Shown here: in pieces, positions 32,186 through 57,059 of the stretch
Position numbering within the stretch: position 1 is the stretch's first letter
Layout: every line of letters begins with the position of its first letter
Source: an uncultured Bacilli bacterium
GTDB taxonomy: Bacteria > Bacillota_I > Bacilli_A > RF39 > UBA660
Length of the DNA: 57,918 nucleotides
Reading direction: 5' to 3'
Assembly (NCBI GenBank): GCA_947628485.1
Contig: CANRAA010000001.1
Coordinates: 1-57,918 of the forward strand
Made by a program: the position numbers and the translations under genes
Notes under the pieces: generated by a model
Database searches by the model: none
What the model saw: the letters and a program-made list of their open reading frames with translations, nothing else
Told to the model about the DNA's origin: nothing

Positions 32186-34054
32186 TTATCTTCCTTTCTT
32201 ATTTTCCTTTTCATCAAAACATTTCGCTAAAAAATCATTGATATATAGCATAATTTTTCCCAAACCTTTTTTAGTAAATTGGGGATTATTCTTTAAAAAA
32301 TTCTTTCCTTTGATTTTAACATTAGGTATATTTAAATATTCTAAATTACTATTATTAGCTAAAAAATCATTGCCAATTTCTTCAAGTACAGGTAAATCTA
32401 ATTTTCTTAAAGAATTATTTTCAAACATAAAATAATCACTTACAGTTTTTAATTTTAGTAAAGATAATTCAGTTATTAAATTATTTGTCCTTAAAAAACT
32501 ACTTCCTACTATTTCTAAATTAGGTAACCATAATTTTTTTAATTTTTTATTACTACTCAAAAAATAATGACAAATAAATTTTAATTTAGGTAAATAGACT
32601 TCGTCAATTAATTCGTTATCACAAAGAAAACCATCTGCTACCCATTCTAAAGAAGGTAAGTTTAATTTTTCGAGATTTAAATTATTAGATAAGAAGTAAG
32701 AACCTACAATCTCTAAAGATGGTAAATCTAATTTTCTAATTTTTTCATTTCCCAATAGAAAACAATCTCCAGCCTTACGAAGTTTAGGTAAACTTAACTC
32801 TTCTAAAGAACTATTATAAGCTAAAAAGTCATAATCAACTTCTTTTAAAAGAGGTAAATTTAATTCTCTTAAGGACATATTATGACTTAAAAAGCAATAA
32901 CCTGTTTCTTGTAAATTGGGTAATTCGAGTTCCTCTAGGATGCCATTATTATCTAAAAAATAATTACCAATCTTTTGTAAATTAGCCATTTTTAAAGCTT
33001 TTAAATATCTATTATAAATTAAAAAGTTATCCCCAACTTGTTCTAACTCAGGATATTCTAACTTTAGCATTTTATTATCTTTTAAAGTTATAATTACATT
33101 ATTATTATCTTGTAAAGTTATTTTTATTTCTTTATTATCTTCTTCTCTTTTAACCTCTATTTTTTCAATATTAGAAATAGTACTAGGAAATGAATCAGAA
33201 ATTCCTTCATCATATAATCTTACCTCTTTATTTACGAAATCTAAGATAAAATAATCAAAGATAATATATTTTTCTTTATCATATCTTTTAACTTCAAAGT
33301 TATCAATTATAATATTATTGGGACAATAATAAATATTGTTTATTTCTTGATTATATTTATATAATTTACCATCATTTGCTCTAACATATCCTCTTAATTC
33401 AAAACCATTTGTTACGTGTTGTTGAACTAAACCATAATACTCGCCAAAAGATTTGGTTAAACCTGGAGTGATATTATCAAGGTTATTCGAAAAAGTACTA
33501 TCGGGATTATTAACATGATGGTTATATCTATTTTTAATGGATAAAGTATGCGATTTATCTTTGGTAAATTGAATACTTATAACACTGGTACCATAGGCAT
33601 CTTGTCTTTCAGGATTCAAAAAATTTTCTCTTTTAATTTCCAAAACATTCTTTTTTACGGCAAAGAAAACATAACATCTATCAAGTCTTCCTCCATCAAA
33701 AGTACAAAGTTCTTCTCCTTTGGCATAATACTTTTTAAACCTTTGAATATCTTCTTCGCTAGTGCATTCATATAAATCATAACCAGCATCCTCAAGTAAT
33801 TCTTTCGGTGTTTTAATAACTCTTTCTTTATTATTATCTTCAACATTCACTAAATTATATATGTAATTTTTAAATTCTATCCCTCTTAGTTGCTTTATAA
33901 TATCCTCATATAAATCATGACTTGGTTCAAAATTTTGGAACATTAATTTTAAAAGTAAACCTTCTGTTTCTAATATAGTCGCAAAATAATCACGACAAAA
34001 ATGAGCCATTTTCTCGCCATATTTCTTTTTAATTATTTTTAAATCTTGGTTCAC
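32186..34054 (-). CDS. NTD-LRR family protein, paralog 1 (622 aa)
   Basis: GTG start. Family N-terminal motifs (KKKYGEKMAHFC, ELCTFDGGRLDRCYVFFAVKKN, RQDAYGTSVISIQFT, SIKNRYNHHVNNPDST, YYCPNNIIIDNFEVKRYDKEKYI), then 22-aa LRRs. No signal peptide. Confidence 0.85.
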   Translation of the reverse strand: MNQDLKIIKKKYGEKMAHFCRDYFATILETEGLLLKLMFQNFEPSHDLYEDIIKQLRGIEFKNYIYNLVNVEDNNKERVIKTPKELLEDAGYDLYECTSEEDIQRFKKYYAKGEELCTFDGGRLDRCYVFFAVKKNVLEIKRENFLNPERQDAYGTSVISIQFTKDKSHTLSIKNRYNHHVNNPDSTFSNNLDNITPGLTKSFGEYYGLVQQHVTNGFELRGYVRANDGKLYKYNQEINNIYYCPNNIIIDNFEVKRYDKEKYIIFDYFILDFVNKEVRLYDEGISDSFPSTISNIEKIEVKREEDNKEIKITLQDNNNVIITLKDNKMLKLEYPELEQVGDNFLIYNRYLKALKMANLQKIGNYFLDNNGILEELELPNLQETGYCFLSHNMSLRELNLPLLKEVDYDFLAYNSSLEELSLPKLRKAGDCFLLGNEKIRKLDLPSLEIVGSYFLSNNLNLEKLNLPSLEWVADGFLCDNELIDEVYLPKLKFICHYFLSSNKKLKKLWLPNLEIVGSSFLRTNNLITELSLLKLKTVSDYFMFENNSLRKLDLPVLEEIGNDFLANNSNLEYLNIPNVKIKGKNFLKNNPQFTKKGLGKIMLYINDFLAKCFDEKENKKGR

Positions 34055-34136
34055 TTTATCACCATCTTTACTCTATTATAAAATATATTTAAACTTTTAA
34101 ACAATCAATATTCACATAAAAGACAATTATTGACAG
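34055..34136 (-). promoter_or_regulatory. Reiterated intergenic cassette, copy 1 (putative promoter + SD)
   Basis: Plus-strand core TAAACAATCAATATT plus CACCATCTTT...TTATAA. On the minus strand this reads TGTCAATA..TATTGATTGTTTAA....TATAAT..AAAGATGGTGA before the start codon. Confidence 0.4.
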
Positions 34137-35891
34137 TTACCTTTTTATTTTCGCTATAAAATCTTCTCTAGTAAATGTTGGATGACATTTCAAAAAATTG
34201 TAACCAACTTCTTCTAAAGAGGGTAAATTTACTATCTTTAGACATTCATTCCAATCCATAAAATAATTTCTCGCTTTTCGTAATTTCGGTAAATCTAATT
34301 CTTGTAAAGAAGTATTATGAGATAAAAAATTATCACCTACCTCCTCAAGATTAGGCATATTTATTTTTTTAACAGGCAAATTTCTCCAACAAAAATTATC
34401 ACCTACTTTTCTTAAAAGAGGACAATTAATTTCCACTAAAGAATTGTTAAAATATAAAAAACCATACCCTACTATTTTTAAATTAGGTAAGAATAATTTT
34501 TTTAAAGATGAATTATCATATAAAAAATCATTTCCCACTACTTCTAAAAGGGGTAAATCTAACTTTTCTAAATTACAGTTACGTAGTAAAAAACCATTAT
34601 CAATTTTTAAGAGTTTGGGCAAATTTAATTTTATTAAAGCTTCATTAAAATTTAAGAAATTACTACCTACCCTTTGCAAATTTGGTAAATTTAACTTGGT
34701 CATCATCCTATTACAAAGGAGGAAATTATCAGCCACTTCTTCTAATAAAGGTAATTCTAATTCTTCTAAAGTTGCATTATGGTACAAAAAACCATTACCC
34801 ACTTTTTGTAAATCAACCATTTTTAAGATTTTTAAGGCTTTGGCATTACATAAAAAGCCATTACCGACATATTCTAAATTAGGATAATTTAACTTCAATA
34901 TTTGATTATCTTTATTTAAAATTATATTTACTTCATTATTATTCATTAAAGTAATTTTTATTTCTTTAGTATCATCTTCTTTTCTTTCTATTTCGATTTT
35001 TGCGATATTAATAATGGTACTAGGAAAGGGATCTGGAATATTTTCATCATATAATCTTATTTCTTTTTTAACTAAATCTAAAATAAAATAATCCAAGATA
35101 ATATATTTCTCTTTATCATATCTTTTAACTTCAAAGTTATCAATAATGATATTATTTGGACAATAATAAATATTGTTTATCTCTTGATTACACTTATAGT
35201 ATTTACCATCTCGGGCCTTAATATAACCTCTTAATTCAAAACCATTTGTTTTATGTTGCTGCTCTAAATCATAATGTTCAGCGAAACTTTCCGTTAAACC
35301 AGGAATTATATTGTCTAAATTATTTGAATAAGTACTATCAGGATTATTAACGGTATGATTATACCTATTTTTAATTGATAAGGTATGGGATTTATCCCTC
35401 GTAAACTGAATACTTATAACACTAGTTCCATACTCATCTTGTCTTTGAGGACTAGAAAAGTCTTCTCTTTTAATATGTGAGACATTCTTTTTAACCGCAA
35501 AGAAAACATGACATCTATCTAGTCTTCCTCCATGAAAGGTACATATCTCTTCCCCAGGGGCATAATACTTTTTAAACTTTTGAATGTCTTCCTCACACTT
35601 ACATTCATATAAATCATACCCAGCCTTATTTAATAATTCTTTTGGGGTTTTAATAACTTTTTCTTTAAAGTTATCTTCGACATCCACTAAACTATAAATA
35701 TAATTTTTAAATTCATCATCTCTATTTTGGCTTATAATATCTTCATATAAATCATGACTTGGTTCAAAATGCTCGAGCATTAATTTTAAAAATAATCCCT
35801 CAGTTTCTAAAATAGTTGGAAAAAATTCCCGACAAAGATGGGCCATTTTCTCCCCATATTTCTTTTTAATTATTTTTAAATCTTCATTCAT
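34137..35891 (-). CDS. NTD-LRR family protein, paralog 2 (584 aa)
   Basis: Same N-terminal motifs, LRR tail, C-terminal cap NFLKCHPTFTREDFIAKIKR. Confidence 0.85.
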   Translation of the reverse strand: MNEDLKIIKKKYGEKMAHLCREFFPTILETEGLFLKLMLEHFEPSHDLYEDIISQNRDDEFKNYIYSLVDVEDNFKEKVIKTPKELLNKAGYDLYECKCEEDIQKFKKYYAPGEEICTFHGGRLDRCHVFFAVKKNVSHIKREDFSSPQRQDEYGTSVISIQFTRDKSHTLSIKNRYNHTVNNPDSTYSNNLDNIIPGLTESFAEHYDLEQQHKTNGFELRGYIKARDGKYYKCNQEINNIYYCPNNIIIDNFEVKRYDKEKYIILDYFILDLVKKEIRLYDENIPDPFPSTIINIAKIEIERKEDDTKEIKITLMNNNEVNIILNKDNQILKLNYPNLEYVGNGFLCNAKALKILKMVDLQKVGNGFLYHNATLEELELPLLEEVADNFLLCNRMMTKLNLPNLQRVGSNFLNFNEALIKLNLPKLLKIDNGFLLRNCNLEKLDLPLLEVVGNDFLYDNSSLKKLFLPNLKIVGYGFLYFNNSLVEINCPLLRKVGDNFCWRNLPVKKINMPNLEEVGDNFLSHNTSLQELDLPKLRKARNYFMDWNECLKIVNLPSLEEVGYNFLKCHPTFTREDFIAKIKR

Positions 35892-35931
35892 TTTAACCCT
35901 CTGCTTTCTTTTTTATAAATTTTTTAATCTA

Positions 35932-37545
35932 TTATATTTTACCTTTTTGATTAGGAATTTTATCTTCATTAGATAAAAGATTAAAATTATCACTTCCTAT
36001 TTTAAAAGAATGAAATTTTTCTTTCTTAAAAATTCTATAACAAAACAAAAAGTCATCACCAACTTCTTCTAAAGCCGGTAAATACAATTTTTCTAAATCT
36101 ACACTTTTTCTTAAAAAACTCCTACCCACTATTTTTAAAGATGGCAAGTTTACTTCTTTCAAACGAATATTTTCATTTAAAAAACTATCGTCAACTTTTT
36201 CTAATAAAGGTAAATCCAACTTTTTTAAAGATTTATTTTCAAACATAAAATAACTACCTACCCTTTGTAAATGGGGCATGTTTAAATGAGAAATTTTTCG
36301 ATTACTAGATAGAAAGTTATTACCAACTTCTTCTAAAGATGGTAAATCTACTTCTTCTAAAGCCATATTATAATTTAAAAAGCAATCTCGAGCATATTGT
36401 AATTTGGGTAAATTTAACTTTCTTACCTTGCTTCCAAAACTTAAAAAATAGTTGCCTGCTTTTTGCAAATTGGGCATACTTAGCTCTTGTAAAGAAGTAA
36501 CTAACTCTAAAAAAATATCTTTTACTTCTTGAGTGTTTTGATTTTCGTATTTAATCATTCGATTATCTTTATCTAAAACTATTAATACTTCATTATTATC
36601 TGGTAATGTTATTTTTATTTCTTTTTCTTTCTCTTTTCTTTCAACTTCTATTTTACGAATGTTAGAAATAGTATCCGGAAAAGATTCTCTCATATTTTGG
36701 TCATATAATCTTACTTCTTTTTTAACAAGATCTAAAATAAAATAGTTAAATATGATATATTTTTCTTTATCATATCTTTTAACTTCAAAATTATCAATAA
36801 TTATATTATTAGGGCAATAATAGATACCGTTTATTTCTTGATTATATATATAATATTTGTTATCACTCGCTCTAACATAGCCTTCTAATTCAAATTTACT
36901 ATTAGGATGTTGTTGGACTAAACCATAATACTTGCCAAAACTTTCTGTTAAACCATCGATTATATTATCGAGGTTATTTCCGAAAGTACTATCGGGATTA
37001 TTAACATGGTGATTATAGCGATTTTTAATGGATAAGGTATGGGACGCATCCCTCGTAAACTGAATACTTATGACACTTGTGCCATATTCATCTTGACGAT
37101 TAGGATTAGGATAGTCTTCTCTTTTGATATTATCGACATTCTTTTTAACCGCAAAGAAAACATGACATATATCAAGTCTTCCGCCCTTAAAGGTGCATAA
37201 TCTTTCACCTGGGGCATAATACTTCTTAAACTTTTGAATGTCTTCCTCACACTCACATTCATATAAATCATAACCGGCATCTGCAAGCAACTCTTTAGGT
37301 GTTTTAACAACTATTTCTTTATTATTATCTTCGACATCCACTAAACTATAAATATAATCTTTAAATTCAGTTTCTTTTCCTTGCTCTATTATATTCTCAT
37401 ATAAATCATGACTGGGTTCAAAATGCTCTAACATTAAATTTATTAGTAATCCTTCAGTTTCTAGTAAAGTAGGAAAAAATTCGCGGCATAAATGGGCCAT
37501 CTTCTCCCCATATTTTTTCTTAATTATCTTTAAATCATTATTCAC
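35932..37545 (-). CDS. NTD-LRR family protein, paralog 3 (537 aa)
   Basis: GTG start, same N-terminal motifs, shorter LRR tail with a divergent C-terminus. Confidence 0.85.
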   Translation of the reverse strand: MNNDLKIIKKKYGEKMAHLCREFFPTLLETEGLLINLMLEHFEPSHDLYENIIEQGKETEFKDYIYSLVDVEDNNKEIVVKTPKELLADAGYDLYECECEEDIQKFKKYYAPGERLCTFKGGRLDICHVFFAVKKNVDNIKREDYPNPNRQDEYGTSVISIQFTRDASHTLSIKNRYNHHVNNPDSTFGNNLDNIIDGLTESFGKYYGLVQQHPNSKFELEGYVRASDNKYYIYNQEINGIYYCPNNIIIDNFEVKRYDKEKYIIFNYFILDLVKKEVRLYDQNMRESFPDTISNIRKIEVERKEKEKEIKITLPDNNEVLIVLDKDNRMIKYENQNTQEVKDIFLELVTSLQELSMPNLQKAGNYFLSFGSKVRKLNLPKLQYARDCFLNYNMALEEVDLPSLEEVGNNFLSSNRKISHLNMPHLQRVGSYFMFENKSLKKLDLPLLEKVDDSFLNENIRLKEVNLPSLKIVGRSFLRKSVDLEKLYLPALEEVGDDFLFCYRIFKKEKFHSFKIGSDNFNLLSNEDKIPNQKGKI

Positions 37546-37602
37546 ATTATCACCATCTTTTCTTTATTATAAAATAAATTTAATCTATTAAACAATCAAT
37601 AT
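37546..37602 (-). promoter_or_regulatory. Reiterated intergenic cassette, copy 2
   Basis: Same core (TAATCTATTAAACAATCAATATTCACTTAAAAGACA on the plus strand) and the same TATAAT/GGTGA proximal part. Confidence 0.4.
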
Positions 37603-39303
37603 TCACTTAAAAGACAAGTGTTGACAGTTAATGGATGATATAAAATCCTCTTCCGAAAAAGTAGGATGATGCATTAAAAAACAAGAGCCTATTTCTTCTA
37701 TAGAAGGTAAAGATATTTCTTTAAGGGACTTATTATAAAGCAAAAATCTATAACCAACTTTTTGGAGTTTAGGTAAATCTAATTTTTCTAAAGAAGAATT
37801 AATAGTTAAACAATTATTTCCCATTTCTTCTATATTAGGTAAATTTAACACCTTTAAACATTCATTTTCATAGATAAAAAAACTTCCTGCTTTTTGTAAT
37901 TTGGGTAAACTTAATTCTTTTAAAGCATTATTAAGAACTAAGAAATTAGAATTAACTTCTTCTAAAGATGGGAGATTTACTTCTTTTAAAATCCTATTAT
38001 GAAATAAAAAACAACTTCCTACTTTTCTTAAAGATGGTAAATCTAATTTTTTTAGAGCGGTGTTATGATATAAAAAGTCATTGCCAACAAATGTTAAAGA
38101 AGGTAAATCTACCACTTCCAAAGGAGAATTACATACTAAAAATTTATTACCAACTCTTTGTAATTTAGGCAGATTTATTTTTCTTAAGCAATCATTATAA
38201 TATAAAAACTCATCACCAATTGTTTCGACATTTGGTAAATTTATTTCTTGTAAAAATTTACTATCAAATAAAAAACCATTGTCTATTTCTTTGATATTTT
38301 GATTTTCTAATTTTAACATTTTATTATCTTTATCTAAAACTATTATCACTTTATTATCTGGTAAAGTTATAATTATTTCTTTTTCCTCTTCTTTTCTTTT
38401 TATTTCTATTCTTTCGATATTCAAAATGGTATCTATAAAGGTATCCTTAAATCTCATATCATATATAATAATTTTTTTATTTACTAAATCTAAGATGAAG
38501 TAATCAAAGACAATATATTTTTCTTTATCATATCTTTTAACTTCAAAGTTATCAATAATTATATTATTAGGACAATAATAAACATTATAAAATTCTTGAT
38601 TATATTTATAGTATTTACCATCACTCGCTTTAACATAGCTATTTAATTCAAATTTGTTGTTAGGATGTTGTTGGATTAAACCATAATGCTCGGCAAAACT
38701 ACTTGTTAAACCTGGAGTTATATTATCTAAATCATTGGAAAAAGTACTATCCGGATTATTAACGGTATGATTATATCTATTCTTGATAGATAAAGTATGG
38801 GACTCATCCCTCGTAAATTGGATGCTTATAACACTAGTTCCATAGGCATCTTGTCTTTCGGGATTAGGGAAGTCTTTTCTTCTAATATGTGAGACATTCT
38901 TTTTTACCGCAAAGAAAACATGACATCTATCGAGTCTTCCGCCATCAAAAGTACATAACTCTTCCCCTTTGGCATAATACTTTTTAAACCTTTGAATGTC
39001 TTCCTCACACTCACATTCATATAAATCATAACCGACTTCCCTTAACAATTCTTCGGGAGTTTTTATGCTTTTTGTTTCCTTATTGTTTTCATTCTCAATT
39101 AAACTATAAATATAATCTTTAAAATCATTTTCTTTCCTTTGTTTTATTATATCTTCATACAAATCATGATTGGGTTCAAAATGCTCTAACATTAATTTTA
39201 AAAGTAAACCATCAGTTTCTAAGATAGTGGAAAAATAATCACGACAAAGATGGGCCATCTTCTCCCCATATTTCTTTTTAATTATTTTTAAATCATTATT
39301 CAC
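37603..39303 (-). CDS. NTD-LRR family protein, paralog 4 (566 aa)
   Basis: GTG start, same N-terminal motifs, LRR tail, cap HHPTFSEEDFISS. Confidence 0.85.
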   Translation of the reverse strand: MNNDLKIIKKKYGEKMAHLCRDYFSTILETDGLLLKLMLEHFEPNHDLYEDIIKQRKENDFKDYIYSLIENENNKETKSIKTPEELLREVGYDLYECECEEDIQRFKKYYAKGEELCTFDGGRLDRCHVFFAVKKNVSHIRRKDFPNPERQDAYGTSVISIQFTRDESHTLSIKNRYNHTVNNPDSTFSNDLDNITPGLTSSFAEHYGLIQQHPNNKFELNSYVKASDGKYYKYNQEFYNVYYCPNNIIIDNFEVKRYDKEKYIVFDYFILDLVNKKIIIYDMRFKDTFIDTILNIERIEIKRKEEEKEIIITLPDNKVIIVLDKDNKMLKLENQNIKEIDNGFLFDSKFLQEINLPNVETIGDEFLYYNDCLRKINLPKLQRVGNKFLVCNSPLEVVDLPSLTFVGNDFLYHNTALKKLDLPSLRKVGSCFLFHNRILKEVNLPSLEEVNSNFLVLNNALKELSLPKLQKAGSFFIYENECLKVLNLPNIEEMGNNCLTINSSLEKLDLPKLQKVGYRFLLYNKSLKEISLPSIEEIGSCFLMHHPTFSEEDFISSINCQHLSFK

Positions 39304-39360: not shown

Positions 39361-41184
39361 TTAGTTAAAAGATAATCTTTTTGGTTTCGATATAAAATCT
39401 TCTCTAGTAAATATTGGATGATATTCTAAAAAATTATTTCCGGCCTCTTCTAAAGAAGGTAAATATACTTCTTCTAAAAATATGTTATTGTACAAAAAAT
39501 CATCACCAACTTTTTTTAAAACGGGTAAATTTAACTTTCTTAAGGATGTATTCTCTACTAAAAAAGCATCTGCAGTTTCCTCTAAAGATGGTAAAGATAA
39601 TTCTTTTAAGGAATTAACACTATATAAAAAGGCACTTCCAACCGATTTTAAAGATGGTAGATTTATTTCTTGAATTATTTCATTAGTGGATATAAAATCT
39701 TCACCTACTTTTCTTAAAAGGGGTAAATCTATTGTTTTAAGATTACCATTACTAAATAAAAAAGTATCTCCCGTTTCTTCTAAATAAGGTAGGGACAATT
39801 CTTCTAAAAAAATATTACTATTTAAAAAGTTATCTCCTACTTTTTTTAAAGATGGTAAAGATAAATTTTTAAGATATTGATTATAACACAGAAAAGCATT
39901 TCCCACTACTTCTAAGGATGGTAAACTTATTTCTTTTAATGAATTGTTATAAAATAAAAAGTCATTTTTAATTATTCTTAATTTAGGTAAATACAATTTT
40001 TTAAGATTTTTATTATCACATAAAAAATCATCACCAACATACTCCAAAGAAGGTAAGTTTAATTTTTCTAAAAAAATATTATTAAATAAAAAACATCTAC
40101 CTACTTTTTCTAGTAGTGGAAAACTTATTTCTTTTAAAAATTTATTATTGCATAAAAAATGACCATCAACTCTTTTAATATTACTTTCTAATTTAATCAT
40201 TTGATTATTCTTATTTAGGGATATTACGATTTTATTATCTTTTAAAGTTACAATTATTTCCTTTTCTTCTTGCTTTTTAACTACTTCTATTTTTTGAATG
40301 TTCGAAATAGTGCTCGAAAATGAATCTTCAATATATTCACAATATAATCTTATTTCTTTTTTAACTAAATCTAAAATAAAGTAATCAAAAACTATATATT
40401 TCTCTTTTTCATATCTTTTAACTTCAAAGTTATCAATAATTATATTATTGGGACAATAATAAACATTATATATTTCTTGATTATATTTATAAAATTTACC
40501 ATCATTTGCTATAACATAATTTTTTAATTCAAAATTATTTGTTTTAATTTTTTGAACTAAACCATAATGTTCGGCAAAAGAAGTTGTTAAACCTTCTACT
40601 ATATTATCTAAATTATTTGAAAAAGTACTATCCGGATTACTTACATGGTGATTATATCTATTCTTAATAGATAAAGTATGAGATGCATCCCTCGTAAATT
40701 GGATACTTAAAACACTTGTGCCATATTCATCTTGGCGATTAGGAAATAGGAAATCTTCTCTTTTGATGTCAGAAACATTCTTTTTTACCGCAAAGAAAAC
40801 ATGACATCTTTCTAGCCTTCCACCATTAAAAGTACAAAGTTCTTCCCCTTTAGCATAATACTTTTTAAACTTTTGAATGTCTTCCTCACTTGTACATTCA
40901 TATAAATCATAACCAGCCTTCTTAAGTAAATCTTTTGGAGAGGGAACTTCTGTTTCATGGTTATCATTTTCACGTTCAATTAAACTATAAATAAAATCTT
41001 TAAATTCATTTTCTTTATTTTGTCTTTTTATATCCTTATATAAATCATGATTTGGTTCAAAATGCTCTAACATTAAGTTTGAAAGTAAGCCTTCCGTTTC
41101 TAAGATAGTTGAAAAATATTCCCGGCAGAAATGGGCCATTTTCTCCCCATATTTTTTCTTAATTATTTTTAAATCTTGGTTCAT
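39361..41184 (-). CDS. NTD-LRR family protein, paralog 5 (607 aa)
   Basis: Same architecture. Its 5' part contains a 253-bp tract identical to paralog 8. Confidence 0.85.
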   Translation of the reverse strand: MNQDLKIIKKKYGEKMAHFCREYFSTILETEGLLSNLMLEHFEPNHDLYKDIKRQNKENEFKDFIYSLIERENDNHETEVPSPKDLLKKAGYDLYECTSEEDIQKFKKYYAKGEELCTFNGGRLERCHVFFAVKKNVSDIKREDFLFPNRQDEYGTSVLSIQFTRDASHTLSIKNRYNHHVSNPDSTFSNNLDNIVEGLTTSFAEHYGLVQKIKTNNFELKNYVIANDGKFYKYNQEIYNVYYCPNNIIIDNFEVKRYEKEKYIVFDYFILDLVKKEIRLYCEYIEDSFSSTISNIQKIEVVKKQEEKEIIVTLKDNKIVISLNKNNQMIKLESNIKRVDGHFLCNNKFLKEISFPLLEKVGRCFLFNNIFLEKLNLPSLEYVGDDFLCDNKNLKKLYLPKLRIIKNDFLFYNNSLKEISLPSLEVVGNAFLCYNQYLKNLSLPSLKKVGDNFLNSNIFLEELSLPYLEETGDTFLFSNGNLKTIDLPLLRKVGEDFISTNEIIQEINLPSLKSVGSAFLYSVNSLKELSLPSLEETADAFLVENTSLRKLNLPVLKKVGDDFLYNNIFLEEVYLPSLEEAGNNFLEYHPIFTREDFISKPKRLSFN

Positions 41185-41193
41185 ATTATCCCC

Positions 41194-42069
41194 CTACTTT
41201 CTTCTTTTCAAGGCCACTTCATTTAAATCATTAATCTTTTTTGTATACTCTGAATTACAAGACATAATCATCTTTTTATGCATTTCAATATTAGCATCAT
41301 CAATATATTTAGCATAAAGATAATTAGTTTCAACTTGGTCAATTGGTTTTGTTTCTTTACAAAAAACACTTAAATAATTTTCCACCATATTTTTTTCATC
41401 TTTAGTACAAAAAGAGCCTAGATAAAAGATAAAATAAGGGGCTAAAGTTCTTAAAACATAATTTATATTATCATTATGTAAATTTCTTTCATAAAATTCT
41501 AAAATATCTTTAACCATTGGACTTATATCTACATCACTAGAACAAGCCAAATTTTGTGCATATAAAGGCATTAAATATATAAGACCATAATTAGCCCAAT
41601 GATTATATGGAGTATTACCTAAAATATCATATATAAGAACTTTTTGAAAAGGATAATAATATACAAATTTTTCTTCGGGATTAAAAAGTTGTTCATTTCG
41701 AATTGGAACAGGAAATCCATTACATTTTAACCACTTATATTTTTCTTCTCCTTTTTCATAAGCCGTTAAAACTCTTTTCGTAAAACTACGAATAAATTCG
41801 AAAAATTCATTACCTAAAATAATTTGATGTTTTTTAGTATTTTCAAAACCATTCTCGGTAGGCATGGTATATCCCTTTAATATATAGGATAAAGTACTTG
41901 CTAAATACATGCCCATTATTTCTTGATTAGAATAATTAACTTCTGTAAAATTATAAATTCTTGCCCATGATGGCGGAATTCCTATCGGAAGTTTACACGG
42001 TTCTATTTCTTCATTTAATTCCTTATAACAATTATTTAAAAGCCACTTTTCACATTCTAATTTTGTCAT
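41194..42069 (-). CDS. Unrelated hypothetical protein inserted in the LRR array
   Basis: Trimmed to ATG 42069 (MTKLECEKW), 5 nt after an AGAGG SD. 291 aa, soluble, no LRR or NTD motifs. 9-nt gap to paralog 5. Confidence 0.65.
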   Translation of the reverse strand: MTKLECEKWLLNNCYKELNEEIEPCKLPIGIPPSWARIYNFTEVNYSNQEIMGMYLASTLSYILKGYTMPTENGFENTKKHQIILGNEFFEFIRSFTKRVLTAYEKGEEKYKWLKCNGFPVPIRNEQLFNPEEKFVYYYPFQKVLIYDILGNTPYNHWANYGLIYLMPLYAQNLACSSDVDISPMVKDILEFYERNLHNDNINYVLRTLAPYFIFYLGSFCTKDEKNMVENYLSVFCKETKPIDQVETNYLYAKYIDDANIEMHKKMIMSCNSEYTKKINDLNEVALKRRK

Positions 42070-42150
42070 ATTGACCTCTTTCTGGTTTCCTATCTTAACA
42101 CAAAATGACTTAATTAACAATTATTTAAGAGATAAATTTCCCATTTTAAT

Positions 42151-48161: not shown

Positions 48162-48207
48162 AATATCACCATATTCCTTTATTATAAATCATTTTTAATC
48201 CTATAAC

Positions 48208-49875: not shown

Positions 49876-51620
49876 TTGCTCACCTTCTTTTTTGTTTTCT
49901 TTAATGTACTACTAATCACGGGATGATCTTCTAAAAATGGAAAGATAAGTTCAGGGACAATTATTTCTCTTAAATCTTCATTAAAATATAAAAATTTATT
50001 ACCTACCATTTGTAAACATGGTAAATTTATTTTATAAATTTTTTTATTAAAACATAAGAAATATTCCCCAGCACTTTTTAAAGAAGGTAAACTTAATTCT
50101 TGAAGACCTTCGTTATAATATAAAAAATAATTGCCCACTTCCTCTAAAGAAGGTAAAACTAGTTCTCGAAGACACTCATTTCCATACATAAAATCATTTC
50201 CCACTTTTTTTAAGAATGGTAAATCTAATTTTTTAAGAACTTCATTATAATATAAAAACTTATTACCAACTTCTTCTAGGAGTGGTAAATCTAATTCTTT
50301 TATGACTGCGTTTAATAGTAAGAAACTATTCCCAACTTTTCTTAATGATGGTAAACTTATTTCTTTTAAAACTTCGTTATATTGTAAGAAATTACTACCT
50401 ACTCTTTGCAAACTTGGTAAATTTAACTCTTTTATATAAACATTAAAACATAAAAAGCTATTACCAACTCTTTTTAATTTAGGAAGATTTAATTTTTTTA
50501 AATGGCTATTAAACTCACAAAAACCATCTCCTACTTTTTCTAAAACTGGTAAATTTAATTCATGAATTAAAAAATTAGAAGAAAGGAAATAATCCCCAAT
50601 TATTTTTATTTTAGGATAATCTAATTTAATAATTTGATTATTTTTATTTAATGCCATAGTTATGATATTATTGTTTTGTAAAGTTATTTTTATTTCTTTT
50701 TCCTCTTCTTTTCTTTCTATTTCTATTTTAACAATATTGAAAAAAATATCGGGAAAAGATTCTCTAATACTTTTATCATATAATCTTACCTCTTTATTTA
50801 CGAGATCTAAAATAAAGTAATCAAAAATAATATATTTTTCTTTATCATATCTTTTAACCTTAAAATTATCAATTATTATATTATTGGGACAATAATAAAT
50901 GTTATTTAACTCTTGATTATATTTATAAAATTTACCATCACTGGCTAAAACATAATAATCTATAGAAAATTCATTTCTTAAATGTTGTTGCACAAGACCA
51001 TAATACTTACCAAAACTTTCGGTTAAACCAGGAATTATATTATCTAGGTTATTCGAATAAGTACTATCGGGATTATTAACAGTATGATTATAGCGGTTTT
51101 TAATCGATAATATATGGGATTTATCCCTTGTAAATTGAATACTTATGACACTAGTTCCGTAGGCATCTTGTCTTTCGGGATTAGAAAAATCTTCTCTTTT
51201 AATGTTAGCAACATTTTTAGAAACGGCAAAGAAAACATGACAACTTTCCAGTCTATTTCCTCTAAAAGTACATAATTCTTCCCTTTTGGCATAATATTTT
51301 TTAAATTTTTGAATATCTTCCTCACACTTACATTCATATAAGTCATAACCGGCCTCGTTTAATAATTCTTCGGGGGTTTTTATTTCTTTTACCTCATTAT
51401 TTTTTTCGACATCAACAAAACTATAAATATAATTTTTAAAATCACCTTCTAGATTTTGCTCTATTATGTCATCATATAAATCATGATTTGGTTCAAAATG
51501 TTTTAACATAAGATCGGAAAGTAAACCTTCTGTTTCTAGTAAAGTAGGAAAAAATTCCCGACATAAATGAGCCATCTTTTCCCCATATTTCTTTTTAATT
51601 ATTTTTAAATCTTCATTCAT
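49872..51620 (-). CDS. NTD-LRR family protein, paralog 10 (582 aa)
   Basis: Trimmed to ATG 51620 (MNEDLKII, as in the paralogs) after an AGGTGA SD. The track start is 51638. Confidence 0.85.
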   Translation of the reverse strand: MNEDLKIIKKKYGEKMAHLCREFFPTLLETEGLLSDLMLKHFEPNHDLYDDIIEQNLEGDFKNYIYSFVDVEKNNEVKEIKTPEELLNEAGYDLYECKCEEDIQKFKKYYAKREELCTFRGNRLESCHVFFAVSKNVANIKREDFSNPERQDAYGTSVISIQFTRDKSHILSIKNRYNHTVNNPDSTYSNNLDNIIPGLTESFGKYYGLVQQHLRNEFSIDYYVLASDGKFYKYNQELNNIYYCPNNIIIDNFKVKRYDKEKYIIFDYFILDLVNKEVRLYDKSIRESFPDIFFNIVKIEIERKEEEKEIKITLQNNNIITMALNKNNQIIKLDYPKIKIIGDYFLSSNFLIHELNLPVLEKVGDGFCEFNSHLKKLNLPKLKRVGNSFLCFNVYIKELNLPSLQRVGSNFLQYNEVLKEISLPSLRKVGNSFLLLNAVIKELDLPLLEEVGNKFLYYNEVLKKLDLPFLKKVGNDFMYGNECLRELVLPSLEEVGNYFLYYNEGLQELSLPSLKSAGEYFLCFNKKIYKINLPCLQMVGNKFLYFNEDLREIIVPELIFPFLEDHPVISSTLKKTKKKVSK

Positions 51621-51664
51621 TTTTTCACCTGCTTTCATTGTTATAAATTAATTTAATATATTTA

Positions 51665-53611
51665 TTATCTTCTAATTGTATGGCCAAAATTTTCCCTAGT
51701 TAATTCAGGATATTTTGCTAAAAAGTGATTACCTATTATTTCTATTGAAGGTAAATACACTTCTTTTAAAACTTTATTACGAGGCATAAAATATTCCCCA
51801 GCTTTTATAAGCTTTGGTAAATATAATTTTTCAATAGAATTATTGTGAAATAAAAAGCAATCACCAACTTCTTCTAAAGAAGGCAAATATATCTCTTTTA
51901 AACATAAAGCATTGTCCAAAAAATAATTTCCTATGGTTACTAATGATGGCAAATTTACTTCTTGAATTATTTTATTATAAGCCAAAAAACTATCTCTTGC
52001 TTTTTTCAAAAGGGGTAAATCTAATTTTTTAAGTCTATTATTATTAAATAAAAATTTAGGCCCTACTTCTTCTAAAAGGGGTAAGTCTAATTCTTCTAAA
52101 GAAGTATCACCATCTAAGAAATTACCCCAAACTTCCCTTAAAGACGGTAAACTTAATTTTTTTAAAGATGTTCCCCTATACAAAAAGTATCGGCCTACTC
52201 TTTGTAACTTAGGCAACCTTATTTCTTTTAAAGCATTATTAGTATATAAAAAATCATCTTGGGCTTCTAAAAGTTCTGGTAAAAGTAATTCTTCTAATGC
52301 CGTATTATAATATAAGAAACAATTACCTACTTTTTGGAGTTTAGGTAAATTTAATTTATGAATTGTTTGATTAAAATAAAGAAAATCATCACTAACTTCT
52401 TCTAAAGAAGGTAAATCTAATTCTTCTAAAGAAAAATTGTCATGCAAAAATCCCCATCCTACTCTTTGCAATTTAGGTAAATATATTTTTTTAATATTAT
52501 TATCCATTAAAAAACATTTCCCAACCTTTTCAAGATTTGGCACATTAAATTCTTCTAAAGAAGGCACAAAACTCAAAAAATAATCTTGGGCTTCTTTTAA
52601 ATTTTGATTTTCGAATTTTATTATTTGATTATCTTTATTTAAAATAATTATTACTTCACTATTATCTTGTAATGTAATTTTAATTTCTTTATTCTCTTCT
52701 TTTCTTTTTACTTCTATTTTATGAATATTTGTTAAAGTACTAGGAAAAGAATCTTCCATTTCATTATCATATACTCTTATCTTTTTATTAACTAAATCTA
52801 AAATAAAGTATTCAAAAACAATATATTTTTCTTTATCATATCTTTTAACTTCAAAATCATCAATTATTATATTATTGGGACAATAATAAATATTAAAATT
52901 TTCTTGATTATATTTATAAAATTTGCCATCATTTGCTTGAACATAGCCCTTTAATTCAAAATTTTTACTTATATTATCTTGCGAAAGATTATAATACTTA
53001 CTAAAACTTTCAGTTAATCCTTCTATAATATTATCTAGATTATTCGAAAAAGTACAATCAGGATTGCTTACATGATGATTATATCTATTTTTAATAGATA
53101 AAGTATGGGATTTATCCCTCGTAAATTGAATACTTATAACACTTGTTCCATATTCATCTTGTCTTTGGGGATTAGAAAAGTTTTTTCTTTTAATTTCCGA
53201 AACATTCTTTTTAACGGCAAAGAAGACATAACATCTATTTAGTCTTCCCCCGTGGAAAGTACATAACTCTTCCCCTTTGGCATAATACTTTTTAAACTTC
53301 TGAATATCTTTTTCACTTGTACATTCATATAAATCATAACCAGCTTCACTTAATAAATATTCAGGAGTTTTAAATGGTATTTCTTTGTTATCTTTTTCAA
53401 CATCTACTAAACTATAAATATAATTTTTAAATTCAGTTTCTTTGTTTTGCTCTATTATATCTTCATATAAATCATGACTTGGTTCAAAATTATCTAATAA
53501 TAATTTTAAAAGTAGACCATCTGTTTCTAAAATGGTTGGAAAATTATCCCTGCAAAAATGCGCCATTTTCTCGCCATATTTCTTTTTTATTATTTTTAAT
53601 TCTTCATTCAT
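51665..53611 (-). CDS. NTD-LRR family protein, paralog 11 (about 648 aa)
   Basis: The junction GGTGATGAATATG gives three possible starts: GTG 53620, ATG 53617 or ATG 53611. ATG 53611 matches the paralog N-termini. Confidence 0.85.
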   Translation of the reverse strand: MNEELKIIKKKYGEKMAHFCRDNFPTILETDGLLLKLLLDNFEPSHDLYEDIIEQNKETEFKNYIYSLVDVEKDNKEIPFKTPEYLLSEAGYDLYECTSEKDIQKFKKYYAKGEELCTFHGGRLNRCYVFFAVKKNVSEIKRKNFSNPQRQDEYGTSVISIQFTRDKSHTLSIKNRYNHHVSNPDCTFSNNLDNIIEGLTESFSKYYNLSQDNISKNFELKGYVQANDGKFYKYNQENFNIYYCPNNIIIDDFEVKRYDKEKYIVFEYFILDLVNKKIRVYDNEMEDSFPSTLTNIHKIEVKRKEENKEIKITLQDNSEVIIILNKDNQIIKFENQNLKEAQDYFLSFVPSLEEFNVPNLEKVGKCFLMDNNIKKIYLPKLQRVGWGFLHDNFSLEELDLPSLEEVSDDFLYFNQTIHKLNLPKLQKVGNCFLYYNTALEELLLPELLEAQDDFLYTNNALKEIRLPKLQRVGRYFLYRGTSLKKLSLPSLREVWGNFLDGDTSLEELDLPLLEEVGPKFLFNNNRLKKLDLPLLKKARDSFLAYNKIIQEVNLPSLVTIGNYFLDNALCLKEIYLPSLEEVGDCFLFHNNSIEKLYLPKLIKAGEYFMPRNKVLKEVYLPSIEIIGNHFLAKYPELTRENFGHTIRR

Positions 53612-53616
53612 ATTCA

Positions 53617-55566
53617 TCACCTGCTTTTTCTATTTAAATTATCTTTTAACTCTAATGATAATTGCTCACAATCAAAAATTAAATCTTCCGTATTACAATA
53701 TTCTTTTAAAAGTGGCGTATAACAATAAGGAATGTCTTTCAAAAGGGAAATATCAGAAACTCTTTCTAACTTGGGAGCATATAAATATTTTATTACTTTA
53801 AAATCTTTAAAATTAATTATAGAAATAAGATTAGGTAGGTATAATATTTTTACTTTATCATTATTATATAGAAAAGAGTCTTGTATAGAAACCAAAGATG
53901 GTAAATTTATAATTTCTAATTCTCTATTTTTATACATAAAATTTTTTCCTGTTTTTTCTAACATAGGCATGTCTAATTTTTTACATGCTATATCAAAATA
54001 TAAAAAATCGTGTTTAACTTCACAACATTTGGGTAAATATACATCTTCTATAATCATATTTTCAGGAAGAAAATTATTACCAATATGAGTTACATTAGGT
54101 AAATATATTGTTTTTATTTTATCGTTATCATATAAAAAGTCATCCCCAATAGAAACTAAAGAAGGAAGATTTATAGTTTCTAATTTTCCATTTTCTGTCA
54201 TAAAATTAGCTCCTACTTTTTCTAACCTAGGCATATCTATTTTTTTACAGACAAAATTATAATACAAAAAATTGTCTTTAATTTCTCGACATTTTGGCAA
54301 AGAGACAGACTCTATTTTTTCGTTTGCCCATAGAAAGTTGCTTCCAATAAAAGTTACATTTGGCAAAGAAATGGATTTTAATTTGTTATTAAAATATAAA
54401 AAATCATTACCGATAGTTTCACATTTTGGCAAGAATATTTCTTCCAAACTATCATTATTATCTGACATAAAATCATAACTTATTCTTTCAACATTAGAAA
54501 GATATATTCTTTGACATTTTCTATTATAAAACAAATAATTTTCTTTTATTCCTCTAATATAGGGATTATTAACCATAATAATATTGTTATCTTTATCCAA
54601 ATTAATTGTTATTATAAATCCATCTTCATTATATATTAATAATTCCTTATAATCTTTTCTATTGGTTATTGTAATTTTTTTAATTTTACCTAAACTATGA
54701 ATAAAACCATCATTCTCACGAATATGTTTTTTAATTTTTTTGGTTTCTAAATTTAAAATAAAATAATCAAAGATAAGATACTTTTCTTTATCATATCTTT
54801 TAACTTCAGAATTATCAATTATAATATTATTGGGGCAATAATAAACATTATCTATTTCAAGATTATATTTATAGTATTTACCATCACTCGCTCTAACATA
54901 ATCCCTTAATTCAAATTTACCATTAGAATGTTGTTGGATAAGACCATAATATTCGGAAAAAGATTCTGTTAAGCCATCAATAATATTGTCTAAATTATTT
55001 GAGTAAGTACTATCGGGATTATTAACGGTATGGTTATAACGATTTTTTATAGATAAGGTATGGGATTTATCTTTAGTAAATTGAATACTTAGAACACTTG
55101 TGCCATATGTATCTTGCCTTTGGGGATTAGGAAAGTTTTTTCTTTTAATGTCTGAAGCATTTTTCTTAACCGCAAAGAAAACATAACATCTATTAAGCCT
55201 TCCCCCATTAAAAGTACATAATTCTTCACCACTAGCATAATATTTTTTAAACTTTTGAATATCTTCCTCACACTTACATTCATATAAATTATAACCTACT
55301 TCACTTAATAGTTCTTCGGGAGTTTTAATTACTTTTATTTTATTATCTTTTTCCACATCTACTAAACTATAAATATAATTTTTAAATTCAGTTTCTTTGT
55401 TTTGCTCTATTATATCTTCATATAAATCATGACTTGGTTCAAAATTATCTAATAATAATTTTAAAAGTAGGCCATCTGTTTCTAAAATGGTTGGAAAATT
55501 ATCCCGACAAAAATGAGCCATTTTCTCCCCATATTTCTTTTTCATTATTTTTAATTCCTCATTCAT
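53617..55566 (-). CDS. NTD-LRR family protein, paralog 12 (about 649 aa, divergent linker and LRR type)
   Basis: The first 79 aa differ from paralog 11 at only one position. The linker and repeats differ (LPNVTxIG / LPKCxE / MPxLEK / LPSLVSI units). Confidence 0.85.
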   Translation of the reverse strand: MNEELKIMKKKYGEKMAHFCRDNFPTILETDGLLLKLLLDNFEPSHDLYEDIIEQNKETEFKNYIYSLVDVEKDNKIKVIKTPEELLSEVGYNLYECKCEEDIQKFKKYYASGEELCTFNGGRLNRCYVFFAVKKNASDIKRKNFPNPQRQDTYGTSVLSIQFTKDKSHTLSIKNRYNHTVNNPDSTYSNNLDNIIDGLTESFSEYYGLIQQHSNGKFELRDYVRASDGKYYKYNLEIDNVYYCPNNIIIDNSEVKRYDKEKYLIFDYFILNLETKKIKKHIRENDGFIHSLGKIKKITITNRKDYKELLIYNEDGFIITINLDKDNNIIMVNNPYIRGIKENYLFYNRKCQRIYLSNVERISYDFMSDNNDSLEEIFLPKCETIGNDFLYFNNKLKSISLPNVTFIGSNFLWANEKIESVSLPKCREIKDNFLYYNFVCKKIDMPRLEKVGANFMTENGKLETINLPSLVSIGDDFLYDNDKIKTIYLPNVTHIGNNFLPENMIIEDVYLPKCCEVKHDFLYFDIACKKLDMPMLEKTGKNFMYKNRELEIINLPSLVSIQDSFLYNNDKVKILYLPNLISIINFKDFKVIKYLYAPKLERVSDISLLKDIPYCYTPLLKEYCNTEDLIFDCEQLSLELKDNLNRKSR

Positions 55567-55571
55567 ATTCA

Positions 55572-57059
55572 TCACCTACTTTTTTTATTTTGCTTGTTTC
55601 CATTCCTAAATTTTAAATAATTAAGAAATTTTTTTAAGTCATTTTTTTTGATTTGAAGTAAACAAGACTTACGAGCATAAGAATTATCTAGGAAAAAACT
55701 ATGACCTACTTTTTGCAGATTAGGAGTACTTATCTTCTTAATGGAATTATTACAATACATAAAATCATCGCCAACTTTTTCTAAAAGCGGCAGGTTTATT
55801 TCTTCTAAACTAGCATTAAAAAGAGTAAAACAATCTCCTACTTCTTGCAAAGAATTTAGACTTAATTCTTTAAATTGACCAATTAAGCAAAAATAATTTC
55901 CAACTTTTTCTAAAGATGGCAAGTAAACTTCTTTTAAAACTTTATTATTATATAAGAAAAAATTTTTAACAGTTTGTAAATTGGCCATCTTTAAAACCTC
56001 TAAATGTTTAACATAACATAAAAAATTATTTCCAACATCTTTTACATATGGATTATCTAACTCTATAATGTTATTAAATTTATTTAATACTATTGTTACT
56101 TTCCTATTATCTAGTAAAGTTATTTTTATTTCTTTAGTATCATCTTCTTTTCTTTCTATTTCTATTTTTTCAATATTAGGAATAGTAGAAGGGAAAGAAT
56201 CTTCAGTATAAGAATTATAAAATCTTATTTCTTTTTTAACTAAATCTAAAATAAAATAATCAAAGATAATATATTTTTCTTTATCATATCTTTTAACCTT
56301 AAAATTATCAATAATTATATTATTGGGACAATAATAAATATTATAAAACTCATAATTGTACTTATAGTATTTTCCATCATTAGCTCTTACATACCCACCT
56401 AATTCAAATTTATTGTTAAGGTGTTTTTGGACTAAACCATAATATTTTCCGAAACTTTCCGTTAAACCCCTGATGATATTATCGAGGTTATTTCCGAAAG
56501 TGCTATCAGGATTATTAACAATATGATTATAGCGATTTTTGATGGATAAGGTATGGGATTTATCCCTCGTAAATTGAATGCTTATGACACTGGTTCCATA
56601 TTCATCTTGTCTTTTAGGTTTAGGAAAATCTTCTCTTTTGATATCAGAAACATCCTTTTTAACAGCGAAGAATACATAACATCTATTAAGTCTTCCTCCA
56701 TGAAAAGTACATAACTCTTCCCCTTTGGCATAATACTTTTTAAACTTTTGAATATCTTCCTCACACTTACATTCATATAAATCATAACCAGCCTCGCTTA
56801 ATAATTCTTCGGGAGTTTTTATGATTTTTGTTTCTTTTTTGTCTTCGACATCTACTAAACTAAAAATATAATTTTTAAAATCGTTTTCTTTTTCTTGCTT
56901 TATTATATCATCATATAAATCATGATTTGGTTCAAAATGCTTTAACATAAGATTGGAAAGTAAACCTTCTGTTTCTAGTAAAGTAGGAAAAAATTCCCGA
57001 CATAAACGAGCCATCTTTTCCCCATATTTTTTCTTAATTATTTTTAATTCTTCGTTCAT
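55572..57059 (-). CDS. NTD-LRR family protein, paralog 13 (495 aa, short form)
   Basis: First LRR gene after Cys-His paralog C, with a 23-nt gap and AAGGTGGGGG SD. Near-duplicate of paralog 6. Confidence 0.85.
   Translation of the reverse strand: MNEELKIIKKKYGEKMARLCREFFPTLLETEGLLSNLMLKHFEPNHDLYDDIIKQEKENDFKNYIFSLVDVEDKKETKIIKTPEELLSEAGYDLYECKCEEDIQKFKKYYAKGEELCTFHGGRLNRCYVFFAVKKDVSDIKREDFPKPKRQDEYGTSVISIQFTRDKSHTLSIKNRYNHIVNNPDSTFGNNLDNIIRGLTESFGKYYGLVQKHLNNKFELGGYVRANDGKYYKYNYEFYNIYYCPNNIIIDNFKVKRYDKEKYIIFDYFILDLVKKEIRFYNSYTEDSFPSTIPNIEKIEIERKEDDTKEIKITLLDNRKVTIVLNKFNNIIELDNPYVKDVGNNFLCYVKHLEVLKMANLQTVKNFFLYNNKVLKEVYLPSLEKVGNYFCLIGQFKELSLNSLQEVGDCFTLFNASLEEINLPLLEKVGDDFMYCNNSIKKISTPNLQKVGHSFFLDNSYARKSCLLQIKKNDLKKFLNYLKFRNGNKQNKKSR

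Follow-up and report, generated by a model that had tools for sequence, protein, structure and literature searches.

Thirteen paralogous leucine-rich repeat proteins sharing a previously undescribed N-terminal domain in an uncultured gut Bacilli bacterium, and their relatives in uncultured phages

Leucine-rich repeats (LRRs) of the BspA/TpLRR type, i.e., those recognized by the Pfam family LRR_5, are known from surface proteins such as BspA of Tannerella forsythia. In Candidatus (Ca.) Mycoplasma girerdii, 26 BspA-like proteins have been described, only five of which possess a signal peptide, and 23 of the 26 carry a C-terminal transmembrane (TM) anchor (PMC4206474). The stretch of DNA analyzed here (57,918 nucleotides of an uncultured Bacilli bacterium, assembly GCA_947628485.1, contig CANRAA010000001.1), referred to as the window, harbors thirteen co-oriented genes whose products join LRR_5 repeats to an N-terminal domain (N-domain) of about 335 residues. 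Like the Ca. M. girerdii set, they represent an expanded paralog family of a host-associated, Mollicutes-like bacterium (PMC4206474). The LRR_5 repeats are common to these products and to the BspA/TpLRR surface proteins, from which the array proteins differ, however, in lacking a signal peptide, a lipobox, a type IX secretion system domain, and a TM anchor, and in having the 335-aa N-domain and a linked gene for a 95-aa partner. The data support a self-contained module devoid of export features and with relatives among phage proteins, in which a novel domain that stays constant is joined to an LRR that diversifies and, in many loci, accompanied by a small partner. The reading tentatively favored here, to which somewhat less than an even chance is given, is that these proteins are cytoplasmic LRR-targeted effectors sharing one novel enzyme-like module, probably engaged in phage-host conflict.

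The thirteen paralogs reported in the sequence-only reading of this DNA (32186-57059, 495-803 aa) were all retrieved as minus-strand open reading frames (ORFs), their lengths being counted from the conserved start MN(Q/E/N)(D/E)LKI; for paralogs 10-12, the true start is 3-6 codons further in than that of the listed ORF. None of the 13 reading frames is disrupted, and each one is preceded by a Shine-Dalgarno-like sequence (GGTGA/GGGGG, 13/13). Every paralog consists of the ~335-aa N-domain followed by 6-21 strict 22-residue BspA-type repeats. The intergenic spacers range from -4 to 82 nt, with the only exception of a 966-nt gap holding an unrelated 308-aa ORF (41194-42120); hence, the description as a tandem array is correct as to the 13 co-oriented genes, and the run is interrupted once. 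Five array genes have in common a conserved spacer of 82 nt that contains a promoter-like element. The features of the array are the following:

31896..32183, minus strand: partner gene, 95 aa; its start codon lies 3 nt after the paralog 1 stop (2 intervening bases)
32186..34054, minus strand: paralog 1, 622 aa, GTG start, 12 LRR units; last gene of the array, followed by the partner gene
34137..35891, minus strand: paralog 2, 584 aa, 11 LRR units; reference for residue numbering
34887-35891, minus strand: N-domain of paralog 2 (residues 1-335)
35247-35645, minus strand: core of the paralog 2 N-domain (residues 83-215)
34176-34901, minus strand: LRR region of paralog 2 (residues 331-572)
35932..37545, minus strand: paralog 3, 537 aa, GTG start, 7 LRR units
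37603..39303, minus strand: paralog 4, 566 aa, GTG start, 10 LRR units
39361..41184, minus strand: paralog 5, 607 aa, 12 LRR units
41194..42120, minus strand: 308-aa ORF, Cys-rich (2.9%), between paralogs 5 and 6
42151..43638, minus strand: paralog 6, 495 aa, 6 LRR units; nearest to paralog 13 (synonymous divergence, dS, 0.35)
43721..45667, minus strand: paralog 7, 648 aa, 14 LRR units
45750..48161, minus strand: paralog 8, 803 aa, 21 LRR units; LRR_5 at E=6e-35
48208..49875, minus strand: paralog 9, 555 aa, 9 LRR units
49872..51620, minus strand: paralog 10, 582 aa from the MNEDL start, 10 LRR units; 4-nt overlap with the start of paralog 9
51665..53611, minus strand: paralog 11, 648 aa, 14 LRR units; ortholog in locus L004 (87% identity in the N-domain, 83% in the LRR)
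53617..55566, minus strand: paralog 12, 649 aa, 12 LRR units; ortholog in locus L004 (89% identity in the N-domain, 74% in the LRR)
55572..57059, minus strand: paralog 13, 495 aa, 6 LRR units; first gene of the array

The C-terminal repeats have a strict period of 22 residues, and the unit numbers originally counted, from 6 in paralogs 6 and 13 up to 21 in paralog 8, were reproduced. LRR_5 (PF13306) matches them with E values of 6e-35 in paralog 8 and 1.7e-12 in paralog 12. The scaffold obtained from the 144 repeats of the window, L-x-x-L-x-L-P-x-L-x-x-V-G-x-x-F-L-x-x-N-x-x (scaffold positions 1, 4, 6, 7, 9, 12, 13, 16, 17, and 20), appears to parallel the TpLRR consensus, with Asn in the place of Cys. 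The most variable positions are 18, 19, 21, and 22 (3.7-3.85 bits), followed by position 15; the x-positions 2, 3, 5, and 8 of the canonical LxxLxLP segment are mostly occupied by K, E, N, D, or S (2.1-2.8 bits). In order to avoid circularity, the variable class was redefined on 1,070 repeats of 150 representatives from other genomes, where the same four positions were top-ranked and where positions 18 and 19 are aromatic in 24-29% of the repeats. The ratio of nonsynonymous to synonymous substitution rates (dN/dS; Nei-Gojobori method, six colinear paralog or ortholog pairs, bootstrap 95% intervals) was 0.19 (0.16-0.22) in the N-domain, 0.26 (0.22-0.31) at the other LRR positions, and 1.64 (1.15-2.37) at positions 18/19/21/22, values to be read with the overlap between the paralog pairs, the 25% GC of the genome, and the presence of gene-conversion tracts in mind. 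Since dN/dS is 1.64 at these four positions versus 0.26 elsewhere in the LRR, variation is not evenly spread, and the combination of a constant domain with a variable LRR that had been proposed is borne out. A placement of the variation on the classical concave face was not supported, since the hypervariable positions flank the conserved Asn instead; to judge from the repeat consensus, the variation is predicted to form a stripe that flanks the Asn ladder just before the beta-strand and avoids the center of the concave face as classically defined.

With dS values of 0.5-0.9 among them, the paralogs are old, and gene-conversion tracts of 116-253 identical nucleotides are found within the N-domain. 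Paralogs 5 and 8 (39361-41184 vs 45750-48161) share an identical tract of 253 nt, and paralogs 6 and 13 (42151-43638 vs 55572-57059) one of 203 nt; these tracts, embedded in otherwise diverged paralogs (dS 0.35-0.48), point to gene conversion within the array. The content of the array turns over between species; in the locus L004, clear orthologs of paralogs 11 and 12 only are present, and their LRR has diverged more than their N-domain. The linker and the LRR of paralog 12 are the most divergent of the array. Two antisense ORFs of 147 and 118 aa lie within LRR-coding regions (34444-34887 and 53732-54088, plus strand), and in all likelihood they reflect the periodicity of the repeats and are not genes.

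Between paralogs, identity over the first ~335 residues amounts to 70-79%, and all of the near-invariant blocks quoted in the sequence-only reading were found in this region. That reading could assign the N-domain to no family, and this was confirmed with both single sequences and profiles, for which no match was found in Pfam, NCBIfam, PADLOC, PHROGs, or PDB sequences; against Pfam, nothing but noise was obtained at E<=10, and no NEL domain. A literature search on the N-domain, the partner, and their motifs found no published description. The domain is nonetheless common: a word-indexed search retrieved 2,643 family proteins, none of them named, and an exhaustive hidden Markov model (HMM) search no fewer than 1,275 clusters at 50% identity (745 with E<=1e-30), almost all from uncultured gut Bacilli. 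In most of the 150 cluster representatives listed, the domain starts at or near residue 1. Pfam searches of ten representatives disclosed LRR_5 in six and another credible C-terminal domain in none, and our own repeat HMM detected 22-residue LRR units after the N-domain in ~94% of 270 homologs. These 270 database homologs and the 13 paralogs constitute the 283 family members used for motif scans.

An AlphaFold model built from the 13 paralogs alone (predicted local distance difference test, pLDDT, 72) gave meaningless Foldseek matches, and was superseded by a run in which 137 diverse homologs were aligned (pLDDT 93.4, predicted template modeling score 0.76). In this model, five helices (residues 3-73) precede an alpha/beta core with four strands (83-215) and a beta-hairpin ladder (223-334) leading into the first strand of the LRR. 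Foldseek searches with it returned nothing at E<0.01 in PDB or BFVD, and nothing at E<0.1 in PDB, where the best matches are beta-propellers and OspA-like sheets aligned to the hairpin ladder with probability <=0.2. The N-domain is, therefore, a previously undescribed family, well-folded in the model, and neither the profile searches nor the structural ones matched it to a known export or anchoring module.

The alignment of the bacterial cores with those of the two groups of phage homologs (groups A and B) described below contains 22 invariant positions: G91, C117, T118, R123, R150, D152, Y154, G155, T156, S157, Q162, N175, R176, Y177, N178, H179, V181, D185, T187, L192, G198, and L199. Among the 137 aligned sequences, H179 is replaced by D, S, E, or T in 12, C127 is found in 96, and H128 in 31. 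Hence, of the two motifs singled out from the window, NRYN(H) is universal in the family, whereas C-x8-C-H is not family-wide. The idea of a Cys/His metal site is weakened as well, because C20, C97, C127, and H128 are not conserved in the phage homologs, where only C117 is kept; the conserved residues point to a polar pocket rich in Arg, Asp, Tyr, Ser, and Asn, rather than to a metal site. The alpha/beta core is read here as a putative enzyme or nucleotide/ligand-binding effector. Some readings attempted by eye were set aside: the R150/S157 spacing misfits the R-S-E ADP-ribosyltransferases, and the PD-(D/E)xK, HNH, and papain-like Cys-His readings were rejected or left open, H179 being variable and C97/C20 missing in phages.

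No signal peptide, lipobox, TM segment, or LPXTG was detected in the 13 paralogs, whose maximum Kyte-Doolittle hydropathy over 19 residues is <=1.46, versus 2.7-3.4 in the exported or membrane proteins of the window. The absence of export and anchoring signals, already remarked for the array, extends to the whole family: hydropathy and motif scans revealed a lipobox or LPXTG in 0/283 members, and no hydrophobic N-terminus among them. The Cys content is 1.4-2.5%, whereas three proteins of the window that are exported or membrane-bound have 0.26-0.36%, and the C-terminal tails are basic, with a mean net charge of +2.2 over the last 12 residues. From the lack of export signals and the Cys content, we infer that the family proteins are cytoplasmic.

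The partner gene, not remarked in the sequence-only reading, is present in one copy for all 13 paralogs and encodes an acidic protein (pI 4.6) ending in YLKRVYG (YLKRxYG in the family). In order to survey the neighbors of the family, ORFs within 6 kb of family genes were clustered in 79 related loci, and a single recurrent neighbor family emerged, i.e., that of the ~95-aa partner, which always has the orientation of the family gene, comes immediately before or after it, and often overlaps it by 1-4 nt. Partner and family genes are adjacent or overlapping in 34 of the 59 loci with complete flanks (58%), so that a small cognate gene is tightly linked as in toxin-antitoxin and immunity pairs; divergent members in two further contexts are again coupled to a family gene. 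Of the 147 partner homologs found, at least 120 are stand-alone proteins of 85-146 aa, nearly all of 85-102 aa. The partner has no Pfam or PDB relative and defines a second new family. The 95-aa acidic protein most likely binds the constant N-domain, either as an inhibitor/antitoxin or as a cofactor. No partner gene was found in the phage loci, which is compatible with an inhibitor that would protect the producing cell.

A scan of IMG/VR with the N-domain alignment disclosed homologs in 44 uncultured viral contigs (HMM E 1e-34 to 1e-44), 27-41% identical to the bacterial versions and belonging to two groups. Group A comprises proteins of 558-585 aa, from contigs mostly of 90-208 kb, with the core at residues ~68-285 and extra hairpin-like repeats, and without LRR. 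In group B, proteins of 3,550-4,025 aa contain the N-domain at about residues 1420-1760, directly followed by LRR units of the 22-residue type seen in the array, up to 22 in number. In the group B locus L124, a 103-aa ORF comes after the giant gene, and the large terminase gene after that (TerL; phrog_6681, E 9e-74). The flanks of the cassette match "structural proteins" of cultured Flavobacteriia phages, namely gp18 of Flavobacterium phage elemo (3,694 aa) and gp074 of Tenacibaculum phage Gundel_1, and Gundel_1 shows the same order as L124 (giant gene, 103-aa gene, TerL, portal). Since the giant proteins of the cultured phages do not contain the N-domain, the cassette is an insert in a virion-associated giant protein. 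As to group A, L092 (UViG_2920693923_000001) and other loci show few ORFs of >=90 aa in 16.7 kb around the N-domain homolog under the standard code, and from this very low coding density, a stop codon may be recoded in these large phages; 2.5 kb upstream, there is a weak ParB-like gene.

Besides the partner, no neighbor recurs in the 79 loci, and no secretion system does so near family genes. The nearest flanking genes are diverse housekeeping ones (PcrA/UvrD, DnaA, aminoacyl-tRNA synthetases, Cmk), and no defense-specific family was encountered. A linkage to FtsEX was confined to three closely related loci, and a cluster of ABC ATPase neighbors reflected generic similarity at variable distances; neither was retained. 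The family was not found in GenBank phages or in PLSDB plasmids. The close relatives of the window are metagenome-assembled genomes of uncultured gut Bacilli from rabbit, Hadza human, sheep, and chicken hosts, some records being labeled Tenericutes or Mollicutes, and the named genera are Bacilli incertae sedis.

As to the rest of the window, its GC content is 25%, and the chromosomal housekeeping genes der, engB, and uppS that it carries indicate a chromosome fragment. Scans for tRNA and Rfam families gave no matches, and those for promoters and terminators gave counts near shuffle expectation in DNA of 25% GC, being, thus, uninformative. The genes lying outside the array are the following:

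96-1046 and 4286-4720, minus strand: products with N-termini resembling, by eye, type IV prepilins/competence pseudopilins; they flank the der/engB region
955-2181 and 2159-2935, plus strand: AAA ATPase gene and overlapping ~260-aa partner ORF
6220-7344 and 5466-6269, minus strand: second AAA ATPase gene and overlapping ~260-aa partner ORF
12307-13398, plus strand: helix-turn-helix and ImmA/IrrE-like protein, matching the PD-Lambda-2_B (E 1e-28) and RmrA models
16211-18475, minus strand: VirD4/TraG-type coupling protein
19457-22147, minus strand: 896-aa protein resembling, by eye, a hydrolase of the M23 peptidase/lysozyme-like kind
28828-29460, 29463-30131, and 57083-57739, minus strand: three paralogous ~215-aa proteins flanking the array on both sides
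30182-31837, minus strand: 551-aa protein directly downstream of the partner gene
31891-31863: perfect TTGACA-17-TGnTATAAT promoter consensus ahead of the 551-aa protein gene

The two AAA ATPases are AbiLi/PDC-M12A-like (PADLOC E 4e-118 and 8e-48), and each one, together with its ~260-aa ORF, is probably an AbiL-type defense pair. The VirD4/TraG and 896-aa genes resemble conjugation (type IV secretion) remnants amid housekeeping genes; in the locus L058, a VirD4 with 67% identity to that of the window lies ~2 kb upstream of a family gene. The ~215-aa trio gives sub-threshold DUF7689 matches (E 7e-4 to 5e-3), shares the motifs NCYxYAL and YHFxRQ, reminiscent of a papain-like Cys/His enzyme, has no signal peptide, and was not found beside family genes in other loci. 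The 551-aa protein is strongly hydrophobic in one segment (its hydropathy peaks near residue 431), and L006 is the only locus with a homolog, 51% identical and ~4 kb away from the family gene. The 308-aa ORF had no match in any library scanned and no homolog in the 79 related loci, and it is probably not part of the system. All three were considered as possible components and discarded, not being conserved beside the family elsewhere.

In the reading favored here, the N-terminal ~335 residues would act as a constant effector module, consisting of a five-helix bundle, a small alpha/beta core with an invariant polar constellation (E114, C117, R123, R150-x-D152-x-Y154-G-T-S157, Q162, K-N175-R-Y-N178-H, D185, T187, and N190), and a beta-hairpin stalk, and the TpLRR/BspA-type solenoid (6-21 units) would represent the target-recognition module. 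The four positions per repeat that are Tyr/aromatic-rich and diversifying might provide each paralog with a different binding stripe, and the 13-gene array would then amount to a set of different specificities that share a single activity. The host paralogs would recognize diverse invader or invader-modified proteins and then either modify them or switch on the N-domain, while phages would use the homologous cassette offensively. Since the same cassette sits in virion-associated phage proteins, a conflict between bacterium and phage inside the cell is the most likely arena, and the phage homologs somewhat strengthen the immune role that we infer. A more explicit version, that of a non-STAND germline-encoded immune repertoire in which the hypervariable LRR stripe of each receptor would recognize a different phage protein and thereby release or direct an enzyme restrained by the shared 95-aa inhibitor, with phages delivering the same cassette in giant virion proteins against host targets, so that an LRR-guided enzyme of new fold and chemistry would serve both sides, appears rather doubtful. 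Several observations weigh against these proposals. Housekeeping contexts, frequent single copies, and the lack of a PADLOC relative weaken a role in defense; the 79 loci offer no defense-island context and no recurring PADLOC family other than the generic UvrD/PcrA. Many genomes have just one family gene, in a core-like setting (PolA/RecX, FtsEX), and an endogenous role in the cell would account for this no less well than defense would. The partner is missing from 42% of the complete loci, including several multi-copy ones, the N-domain could be a non-catalytic binding or oligomerization module, and the phage giant proteins could be external fibers, which would imply an extracellular binding role for the cassette; the limits attached above to the dN/dS values bear on the same side.

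It might also be that the products are BspA-like surface or released adhesins exported by a non-Sec route, the variable LRR accounting for antigenic or adhesive variation towards the mucosa, microbes, or gut protists, the N-domain being an anchoring/export module and the small protein a chaperone; the route would be lysis, vesicles, or a cryptic signal, placed in the conserved N-terminal helices or in the basic C-terminal tail. LRR_5 repeats are typical of surface antigens, this being the classical expectation for BspA-type repeats, and the scarcity of signal peptides among the 26 proteins of Ca. M. girerdii offers a precedent (PMC4206474), even though 23 of those are TM-anchored, while no signal, lipobox, TM segment, or LPXTG is present in the family members checked. 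The size and charge of the 95-aa protein are secretion-chaperone-like, the C-terminal tails are basic (+2.2), a VirD4-type coupling protein occurs nearby in the window and in L058, and the cassette-bearing phage giant proteins match structural proteins and might be external fibers; yet, no secretion system is recurrent in the 79 loci, the N-terminus is modeled as a confident helical bundle from residue 3, the Cys content is several-fold above that of the exported proteins of the window, and the invariant Arg/Asp/Tyr/Ser/Asn set resembles an active or ligand site, not an anchor. Taken together, export of this kind is considered unlikely. A comparably low probability is attached to the possibility that the family represents endogenous adaptors with an F-box-LRR-like logic, where the N-domain, together with the partner, would join or itself make up a housekeeping machinery that modifies proteins, turns them over, or processes nucleic acids, cellular substrates would be picked by the LRRs, and the expansion would reflect regulatory diversification, not immunity. 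The many genomes with one copy in conserved housekeeping surroundings and translationally coupled to the partner, the clade-wide presence in gut Bacilli, and the absence from sequenced plasmids and GenBank phages agree with it, whereas dN/dS >1 at the binding positions combined with a rapid turnover of the array would be unusual for conserved self substrates, and homologs are found in phages, also within virion-associated giant proteins. Least probable by far is the idea that the genes are phage-derived remnants or morons, i.e., a domesticated giant-protein cassette amplified by unequal crossing-over and of little function for the cell. The same N-domain+LRR cassette does occur in phage giant proteins, and the tandem layout, the gene-conversion tracts, and the copy-number variation fit recombinational amplification; however, all 13 frames are intact and provided with Shine-Dalgarno sequences, the N-domain dN/dS of 0.19 speaks for strong purifying selection despite dS values of 0.5-0.9 among paralogs, the 27-41% identity between phage and bacterial versions implies no recent transfer, and no phage structural genes flank the bacterial loci.

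If the favored reading were correct, a large family, with its 1,275 or more clusters at 50% identity and its restriction to gut Bacilli not yet cultured and to the phages of these, would couple a new fold and its chemistry to a diversifying LRR, adding to bacterial conflict biology an LRR-based recognition system free of NTPase, and giving BspA-type repeats a function inside the cell, not on it; an enzyme domain not seen before would be gained, together with a natural collection of LRR binders. Even on a conservative reading, the N-domain merits the definition of a family, and the selection pattern gives testable ligand-contact positions.

The comparison with known systems helps to place the family. 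IpaH/SspH proteins follow a like logic, a variable LRR choosing the target for a constant catalytic domain (the NEL E3 ligase) in the cytoplasm; the array proteins have, however, the reversed domain order, no NEL match, and no type III secretion context. NLRs and bacterial STAND proteins (Avs, bNACHT) are likewise diversified cytoplasmic paralogs (a location here predicted) combining a repeat sensor with a constant part, and in this respect the NLR-like logic proposed from the sequence-only reading stands; the architecture does not, since the family has no NACHT/NB-ARC NTPase (Walker A in 0/283 members), no PADLOC match, and no defense-island context. Unlike internalins, the array proteins have no signal peptide, LPXTG, or internalin family match, and, unlike toxins of toxin-antitoxin and polymorphic systems, they carry their constant domain at the N-terminus, match no known toxin family, and end in LRR; moreover, one partner serves 13 paralogs, with no variable matched immunity as in polymorphic toxin-immunity systems. 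As for the PcfJ-like domain (PF14284), three PcfJ-like phage proteins are in the top seven Foldseek matches in BFVD (E 0.045-0.15, probability 0.33-0.44, template modeling score ~0.2), and a Cys followed by three beta-strands can be seen by eye in both; hhalign comparisons of the N-domain with pCF10 PcfJ and a shallow PcfJ alignment (8 close sequences) gave a probability <1% in every case, PcfJ was not reported by the Pfam hmmscan of the N-domain, and the follow-up yielded 18 close homologs for the alignment and one locus in the viral-contig scan. With the phage polyvalent proteins, among whose domains LRR and PcfJ are not mentioned by Iyer et al. 2017 (PMC5512222), the giant gene of L124 can be compared for its position, being separated from TerL only by the 103-aa ORF; none of the catalogued domains was detected in the giant proteins, where LRR_5 alone was recognized, and the bacterial array genes are not polyvalent proteins. 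The uncultured relatives of elemo gp18 and Gundel_1 gp074 hold the N-domain+LRR cassette in the middle of the protein, whereas the bacterial genes are stand-alone and chromosomal. What is new here is, therefore, the N-domain family and the partner family, while the LRR_5 repeats and the repeat-guided logic of effectors and receptors were already known.

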